Positions 26,435-26,583 of a DNA stretch of 64,000 bases are shown here, piece by piece; within the stretch, counting starts at the first letter, position 1; each line of letters opens with the position of its first letter. Origin of the DNA: Escherichia phage vB_EcoM-VpaE1. Below the pieces are notes generated by a model that worked only from the letters and a program-made list of their open reading frames with translations, was not told where the DNA came from and searched no databases. The stretch lies in the sequence record KM657822. One strand, 5' to 3'. The translations under genes were made by a program, and so were the position numbers.

Positions 26435-26583
26435 TAATTATCTTTGTAGATAAGTTATTAAGCTTACCTGTGAGTATGCGACCACAAAGGGTGAAAGGGT
26501 AAATTCTAGATTTAAACCCAAAAAGGCACATCGCTACAGACCTTAAGCAAGTCTGGGTAGCTTATCTACAAAGATAATTTAAT

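Follow-up and report, generated by a model that had tools for sequence, protein, structure and literature searches.

A conserved four-way-junction RNA closed by a long inverted repeat in the tRNA array of FelixO1-like phages

Y RNAs, such as YrlA and YrlB, Yrn1 of D. radiodurans and Yrl1/2 of Thermus phage phiLo, are small non-coding RNAs encoded near a gene for a Ro60-fold protein and on the same strand, and in them an 'effector' region of several hairpins is closed by a long stem between the two ends. The species 1 and species 2 RNAs of phage T4 (rnaC and rnaD), which are released by tRNA-processing enzymes, are small stable RNAs encoded inside a phage tRNA cluster and are annotated at 139 and 119 nt. 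Stems cut by RNase III, for example in the rRNA operon and the T7 early region, are near-perfect double-stranded helices of about two turns that flank an RNA in a polycistronic precursor. Finally, Class I RNAs of Dictyostelium (Rfam RF01414) are about 60 nt long, begin with AAG, form a 6-bp terminal stem with the 11-nt CCUUACAGCAA directly after its 5' strand, and end with CUGU; they have been reported as unique to dictyostelids, their function having been unknown since 2004. The present study concerns a stretch of 64,000 nucleotides from Escherichia phage vB_EcoM-VpaE1 (record KM657822), referred to as the window, in which an earlier note made from the sequence alone had pointed out a perfect 19-bp inverted repeat at 26436-26579, next to a candidate Y RNA. 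This inverted repeat is the closing helix of a discrete, conserved and non-coding four-way-junction RNA of about 145 nt.

Both a reading of the sequence and a repeat search bore out the repeat itself: the 19-nt arm AATTATCTTTGTAGATAAG at 26436-26454 has its exact reverse complement CTTATCTACAAAGATAATT at 26561-26579, and 106 nt are enclosed. The repeat search lengthens the arms to 22 nt (26436-26457 and 26558-26579, 95% complementary), and when G·U pairs are allowed the + strand forms an uninterrupted helix of 24 bp, termed P1, that includes three U·G pairs; the uninterrupted run on the - strand is 19 bp. Both the 5' strand of P1 (26436-26459) and its 3' strand (26556-26579) are supported by the repeat search, by folding and by covariation. 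Only four inverted repeats were detected in the whole window (seed of 12, at least 16 nt, at most 400 nt apart), of which this is the longest; by our own arithmetic, with a probability of about 0.26 that two bases are complementary, a perfect 19-bp inverted repeat within 150 nt is expected by chance about 1e-4 times per 64 kb. Folding of the + strand of 26430-26583 gave -48.3 kcal/mol versus -28.2 +/- 3.6 in 200 dinucleotide shuffles (z = -5.6), none of which folded as well. The earlier note took the repeat for a long hairpin. A long helix does exist, but the element is not a simple long hairpin, because P1 encloses 96 nt that are themselves folded into three to four hairpins, whose loops are conserved. 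The minimum-energy fold and the centroid fold give the element the same order of parts, namely P1, 4 unpaired nucleotides, the hairpins H1 and H2, a weak 3-bp hairpin, the hairpin H3, and the 3' strand of P1.

The element is found at the same place in at least nine sequence lineages of Ounavirinae-like phages. Two sequence types are distinguished among isolates, type A, which is FelixO1-like, and type B, which includes the Mooglevirus Mordin, bumzen and fBSPA4; their interiors are barely alignable, and the ends of the closing helix, the H2 loop ATTCTAGATT and H3 are common to both. More distant relatives were collected through the Ro60-like protein encoded upstream (52-63% protein identity) and are designated L038, L122, L039, L040, L121 (Yersinia phage P778), L123, L124 and L125. 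In each of them an element of the same design lies immediately 5' of tRNA-Lys. Alignment A2, which contains 12 sequences from 3 lineages, 28 pairs and 331 pair cells, shows standard pairs in 98.2% of these cells, versus 31-43% when the partners are slid by 1-3 columns. Double-sided changes occur in 10 of the 28 pairs (0-1 in the slid controls), and the covariation score of 0.332, compared with 0.174 in shuffles, was reached by none of 500 shuffles. Across nine lineages, pairing holds in 87 of 90 cells for the ten P1 pairs nearest to the junction, each position showing 2-5 pair types, and the strands of P1 are merely 15-45% identical between most lineages. The helix is 22-26 bp long, mostly 23-24 bp, in the nine lineages in which it could be measured, with fold z-scores of -3.1 to -7.2; L039 was left out of this count, as its minimum-energy fold merges H3 into P1.

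The loops of H1, H2 and H3 are all conserved. H1 (26464-26494), present in the minimum-energy and centroid structures, carries the apical motif GAGUAUGCG; the motif GRGUAKGC occurs in every lineage, and the apical stem varies by lineage, for example UGUG/CACA in type A and GGGG/CCCC in L038. H2 (26497-26519 in the fold) has a near-palindromic conserved loop, (A)AUUCUAGAUU(U), which may also be written AAUUCUAGAUUU. This loop is identical in types A and B, its core being UCUAGA in Felix-type phages and AUACUAGUAU in L038, and the lower stem of H2 covaries at three pairs within type B. The small 3-bp hairpin (26525-26535), listed from the minimum-energy structure only, is weak and unconserved, and is missing from some type A variants. 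H3 (26537-26555) has the form CAGAC-CUUAAGCAA-GUCUG in the fold and abuts the 3' strand of P1 without an unpaired nucleotide, so that it can stack on P1. Two of its five pairs covary in A2, and its stem changes in every lineage (CAGAC, CAAACC, CAGUC, CUGUUC, AGAGAC, AAAGUC, CAGUCC), while its 9-nt loop, C[CU]U[UAG][AU][GA][CU]AA and usually CUUWAGCAA, is kept across lineages. Among all loci scanned, a hairpin of the H3 type is restricted to this element. The RNA ends 4 nt (UAAU, 26580-26583) before tRNA-Lys(UUU) at 26584-26659.

Pairing also points to the strand on which the element acts. G·U or U·G pairs make up 36 of the 331 cells of A2, and by our own count pairing stands at 98% on the + strand versus about 88% on the - strand; six of nine lineages retain a U·G as the second pair of P1 counted from the junction, and the + strand is that of all 25 tRNAs of the surrounding array. 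An A·C mismatch in the P1 of one lineage, L038/L122, would be a G·U pair on the opposite strand, and the evidence for the + strand is therefore strong and not unanimous. Good folding is seen for both strands, and the core of 19 bp is a perfect inverted repeat, as would be expected of a palindrome that acts in DNA, whether by binding a protein, as an origin or cruciform, or as a signal for recombination or packaging. Such a role is hardly credible: G·U pairs, mismatched in DNA and on the opposite strand, extend and maintain the helix, pairing is conserved between lineages while the arm sequences are not, the inner hairpins covary, and the site lies inside a tRNA operon. A coding role was rejected, because neither the 76-aa open reading frame (ORF) on the - strand, which corresponds to ORF94 of FelixO1, nor the short ORFs on the + strand are conserved in L002 or L038. 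The FelixO1 record has nothing at this position besides this opposite-strand 'unknown' ORF94, which is spurious. The element is very probably a genuine structured RNA of the + strand.

The window belongs to a FelixO1-like phage, and a stretch of 166 nt around the element is shared at 100% identity with Salmonella phage FelixO1 (AF320576.1, 24697-24862). This 166-nt region is matched by 235 phage records, nearly all of them Felixounavirus, Mooglevirus or Suspvirus. A region of the FelixO1 type is present at 99% identity also in GU169904.1 ('Staphylococcus phage SA1', 58614-59063), an assembly that is probably mixed or mislabelled. R1, a covariance model derived from A2, found one copy in the window, at 165 bits, and the known relatives, with weaker matches at the right places in L124, L125 and L039. 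No significant syntenic match on the + strand was obtained outside Ounavirinae-like loci among 94 sources, about 80 of them distant Ro-like loci; R1 also overlooked the elements that L040, L121 and L123 truly have, and absence elsewhere is therefore valid only at this limited sensitivity. Rfam 15 returned nothing over 26436-26579, either at gathering thresholds or, in searches of 2.7 kb and 1 kb, at E values up to 10. A ribozyme, hammerhead or other, and a riboswitch were rejected, as their core motifs are absent from the sequence and there are no Rfam matches. No reverse transcriptase, as would accompany a retron RNA, stands beside the element; no ORF longer than 83 aa occurs in 25317-28403, and the flanks consist of tRNAs. 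The RNA seems to represent a new family, restricted to FelixO1-like (Ounavirinae-type) phages. Phages of this type are classical typing and therapy phages of Salmonella and E. coli, and the conserved RNA is unannotated in the records examined.

The element lies within an array of 25 tRNA genes on the + strand, between tRNA-Asp (26077-26154) and tRNA-Lys(UUU). Its immediate 5' neighbour in the window is a module that is both Y-like and tRNA-like (26304-26435), the candidate Y RNA of the earlier note. This module has a terminal stem like that of Class I RNAs (AAGACCG...CGGUCUG), UUUACAGCAA, and a tRNA-like insert composed of a T arm, an acceptor-like hairpin and a D arm. The earlier note considered that the hairpin might be an extension of this candidate or a second structured RNA, and drew attention to related sequences adjacent to the arms; these are GGTCTGG at 26428-26434, the 3' strand of the upstream module, and GTCTGG at 26551-26556, the 3' strand of H3. 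The two structures are only 3 nt apart and have GUCUGG in common, as a 3' extension of the Y-like/tRNA-like RNA, making one larger RNA, would predict. Folded jointly over 26296-26583, however, they form two independent domains. The gene before the element is tRNA-Ala in L039, L040, L121, L124 and L125, and no Y-like module separates the two; the L124 element takes up all 157 nt of the gap from tRNA-Ala to tRNA-Lys. An extension of the candidate Y RNA is therefore not supported, and we consider it very unlikely, while the suggestion of a second structured RNA holds in the form of a self-contained, covarying four-way junction.

Transcription of the element would proceed on the + strand within a polycistronic tRNA array. 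The transcript that includes it may begin at a promoter-like site before the first tRNA (25427-25456, +, TTGACA-18-TAAAGT, TG upstream); a further such site before the first tRNA is located at 25336-25364 and a second strong one downstream at 26833-26861, all three being matches to the consensus only. No terminator-like site was found on the + strand from the 25427-25456 site to 26833, and a literature search for transcriptomes of FelixO1-type phages found none. The RNA would then be excised from the precursor by the enzymes that mature the flanking tRNAs. Its 3' end would be set by the RNase P cut at the 5' end of tRNA-Lys, 4 nt downstream, as in established tRNA processing, and its 5' end by 3' processing of the upstream tRNA or neighbouring module. 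The long helix may shield the RNA from exonucleases, so that it would accumulate as a stable species.

The same helix might serve its neighbours alone. As a cis-acting processing structure without function in trans, P1 would be an RNase III site of about two helical turns that splits the array precursor or sets the ends or the stability of the adjoining RNAs. RNase III substrates have at least about 20 bp of near-continuous double-stranded RNA, and P1 has 24 bp. The near-perfect helix keeps its length at 22-26 bp while its sequence drifts freely, and constant length is the selection expected from a length-measuring, double-strand-specific nuclease; in addition, the element stands between two gene groups of one apparent transcription unit, and the species 1 RNA of T4, encoded in a tRNA cluster, is a classical RNase III substrate. 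On the other hand, a processing stem has no need of internal hairpins with the conserved loops GAGUAUGCG, UUCUAGAUU and CUUWAGCAA or with covarying stems, and most other junctions of the array have no stem of this kind. A purely cis-acting role is the chief alternative, conceivable and rather unlikely; the conserved inner loops argue for more than an RNase III stem, and cleavage by RNase III and a function in trans are not mutually exclusive.

The array follows a gene for a Ro60-like protein of 471 aa (23902-25317, +), with the TROVE fold and a vWA domain, which matches Pfam DUF2828 and DUF7788 and PHROG 850 ('RNA-binding protein'). The element starts 1.1 kb downstream of this gene and on the same strand. 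The AlphaFold (AF2) model of the protein has a predicted local distance difference test (pLDDT) score of 87, and its 12 best PDB matches by Foldseek are all Ro60/TROVE proteins over the full length (E values of 1e-8 to 7e-7, template modelling (TM) scores of 0.5-0.65); the matches include Rsr and the Ro60 of Thermus phage phiLo. As modelled, the protein has a Ro60 fold. No link to Ro60 was found at the level of sequence by phmmer or by profile search against PDB sequences, and the protein is a DUF2828 protein rather than a sequence-level member of TROVE, resembling Ro60 in fold only. Homologues are found in 708 phage records, with the annotation 'Ro-like RNA binding protein' in mycobacteriophages. 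In a preprint (PhageMaP) on the Felixounavirus Bas63, the homologue gp130 is described as Ro60-like and as a counter to the defence system ppl; the authors offer the speculation that the 'tRNA genes' further downstream include Y RNAs, and identify none. Judged by its modelled fold, the product of 23902-25317 is a candidate partner for the array-encoded RNAs. These, the element among them, thereby offer concrete RNA candidates, with predicted structures and mutable motifs, for a reported anti-defence locus of the Ro60-like type.

A module recurs four times in the spacers of the array, at 25652-25728, 25819-25888, 26216-26290 and 26304-26438, each copy consisting of AAG, a stem of 6-7 bp whose 5' strand is followed by UUUACAGCAA and a variable region, and CUG after its 3' strand. 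These modules have the defining anatomy of Dictyostelium Class I RNAs, and RF01414 matches two of them at 19.7 and 17.9 bits, below its gathering score of 41.5. Modules with freely covarying stems adjoin homologues of the Ro-like protein, on the gene strand, in many unrelated phage contigs. At least one stemmed UWCAGCAA module within 700 nt of the gene and on its strand was identified in 35 of 56 diverse loci; 53 modules near the gene lie on the gene strand versus 4 on the other, and their density is 0.69 per kb versus about 0.03 elsewhere (Poisson 2e-50).

Further modules were observed in L034 (3684-3910), L036 (5530-6110), L062 (4215 and 4275), L107 (4217-4374), L119 (5894-6509) and many other loci, and some of them bear a tRNA-like insert. 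L117 (1401-1540 and 1121-1281) and L115 (258-397) contain Y-like RNAs with a perfect terminal stem of 21 bp, ACAGCAA (or ACAGCCA) directly after the stem, and then a tRNA-like domain with a T arm, an acceptor-like hairpin and a D arm. These RNAs lie 0.6-1 kb upstream of a Ro-like gene and are long-stem versions of the module. Apart from L115 and L117, a descriptor scan for other long-stem RNAs (runs of at least 15 bp) was too noisy. In L036 (Klebsiella phage KP13-16), the gap after tRNA-Thr at 6193-6680 has a tmRNA-like 3' end, GGGUUCAAUUCCCUUCGACUCCACCA; five Class-I-like modules lie upstream of it, and tRNA-like inserts are present in three of them.

Several other structures were noted on the + strand of the window array. 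Two adjoining hairpins follow tRNA-Asp at 26161-26215, GAGAGGGCUAUUUAGCCCCUC and CUCCCUUAAAG...CUUUAAAGGAG, and are nearly invariant in types A and B and in L038. A hairpin of about 19-20 bp stands immediately 5' of tRNA-Leu at 27644-27724, with UUAUUACAGCUUG, which resembles UUACAGCAA, after its 5' strand; it may be another long-stem member of the module family, and an Rfam match of this region to a miRNA precursor is spurious. Just past the promoter-like site at 26833-26861, a short frame at 26911-26943 (ANDNVFLAVA*) resembles a tmRNA tag peptide. Sub-threshold Rfam matches were obtained there for tmRNA_permuted (26760-26943, 32.5 bits) and tmRNA (26875-27066, 14.3 bits), with no tmRNA called by ARAGORN; this region may be a phage tmRNA-like RNA. 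Finally, a tRNA-like fold uncalled by ARAGORN occurs at 27284-27371, where AUGGGACG...CGUCCCAU make an acceptor-type stem, GGGGUUCAACUCCUC a T arm, and the 3' sequence is GCCA; it may represent the tRNA-like domain of, for instance, a tmRNA-like or Y-like RNA.

With these modules beside it, the element may act in trans in the manner of a Y RNA, as one of several small RNAs encoded by the array that would assemble with the phage Ro60-like protein. H3, with its loop UUWAGCAA and its CAG...CUG closure, would be a minimal version of the UUACAGCAA module of the neighbouring RNAs, and other factors would be contacted through H1 and H2. The loop of H3 (UUAAGCAA or UUUAGCAA) differs at one position from the module motif UWCAGCAA, its CAG...CUG closure mirrors the AAG...CUG of the modules, and in FelixO1 H3 and the module share the stem AGACC/GGUCU, which is the likeness the earlier note had flagged. 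That H3 is a minimal module is offered as a hypothesis. Several results weigh against this account. The identity of stem between H3 and module fails in other lineages, and the short resemblance amounts, post hoc, to roughly p ~ 1e-3. The search pattern for modules fixed the C at the very position that is substituted in H3, so that its invariance across the 59 aligned modules was built in from the start. R2, a covariance model made from 59 module cores, did not report H3 in the window at E values up to 10, and the link of H3 to the modules therefore rests on the short resemblance; R2 also failed on true modules, because the variable inserts had been removed from the model. The Ro-binding motifs GNCGAA and GGUCCGA were not found on the + strand of the whole array, and a scan of the + strand of 25300-30900 gave no occurrence of GNCGAA. 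In addition, every phage in which the element has been seen has a Ro-like protein of at least about 52% identity, and the element's association with the gene is therefore inseparable from shared ancestry. That the element works as an RNA in a Ro-like ribonucleoprotein together with the Class-I-like RNAs is accordingly put forward as a tentative reading, to which somewhat less than even confidence is attached.

The structural evidence would serve equally for a stand-alone non-coding RNA that has no relation to the Ro-like protein and acts as a decoy or inhibitor of a host defence system or RNA-targeting nuclease, or as a regulator or sponge through its loops. The near-palindromic loop of H2 could allow loop-loop dimerisation or the binding of a dimeric protein, tRNA-Lys(UUU), a classical target of anticodon nucleases, constantly adjoins the element, and the R2 test that was to link H3 to the Ro-associated modules was negative. 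Against such an RNA, no target or partner can be named, there is no Rfam similarity, including to 6S, retron-type RNAs or ribozymes, and neither a reverse transcriptase nor another dedicated gene adjoins the element. We regard this alternative as doubtful. H3 was also considered as a mimic of the anticodon stem of tRNA-Lys, which was dropped because its stems differ in every lineage.

A wider form of the preferred Ro-like ribonucleoprotein reading may be sketched, although as a whole it is unlikely. The array would be the operon of a Ro-like ribonucleoprotein system comprising the DUF2828 protein with the Ro60 fold, the Class-I-like small RNAs, and the 145-nt RNA as a Y-like scaffold of a new kind. 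H3 would dock the protein, and the fixed-length helix and the loops of H1 and H2 would recruit a host factor such as RNase III or PNPase, which might protect or remodel the tRNA pool or counter a defence such as ppl; Class I RNAs of Dictyostelium would be the eukaryotic counterparts. Much of the interest of the element is owed to the system around it, in which small stable RNAs are co-encoded with phage tRNAs and Ro-like proteins.

Among the systems described at the outset, Y RNAs are the closest to the element in genomic context and overall design, being likewise small and non-coding, encoded beside a gene for a Ro60-like fold and on its strand, built from a long closing stem around several hairpins, and found in phages. 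The element differs from them in that the Ro-binding motif (GNCGAAN0-1G in bacteria and phages, a bulged GGUCCGA in animals) is absent and the sequence of P1 is unconserved, that no tRNA-like domain with T and D arms is present and no tRNA or tRNA-like match overlaps 26436-26579, and that the partner belongs to the divergent DUF2828 family, Ro60-like in fold only. The species 1 and 2 RNAs of T4 are analogous and not homologous: R1, with its filters off, gave no match over rnaC or rnaD in the T4 tRNA region, and rnaC has a T arm and an acceptor stem of the tRNA type, which the element does not. To RNase III stems P1 may be compared as a helix of about two turns in what would be a polycistronic precursor, with the difference that it encloses a small RNA with conserved loops instead of a tRNA or rRNA. 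With Class I RNAs the likeness is local, H3 being a stem of 5-6 bp closed by CAG...CUG with a loop, CUUWAGCAA, one base off the motif CUUACAGCAA. H3 has no variable region and is not reported by RF01414 at E values up to 10, and as a whole the element is unlike these RNAs in its length of 145 nt, its 24-bp stem and its four helices. The four neighbouring modules of the array do fit, with their AAG, 6-7-bp stem, UUACAGCAA, variable region and CUG. This context ties an anatomy thought to be unique to dictyostelid amoebae to a family of Ro-like phage proteins, and the function of both could thereby become testable.

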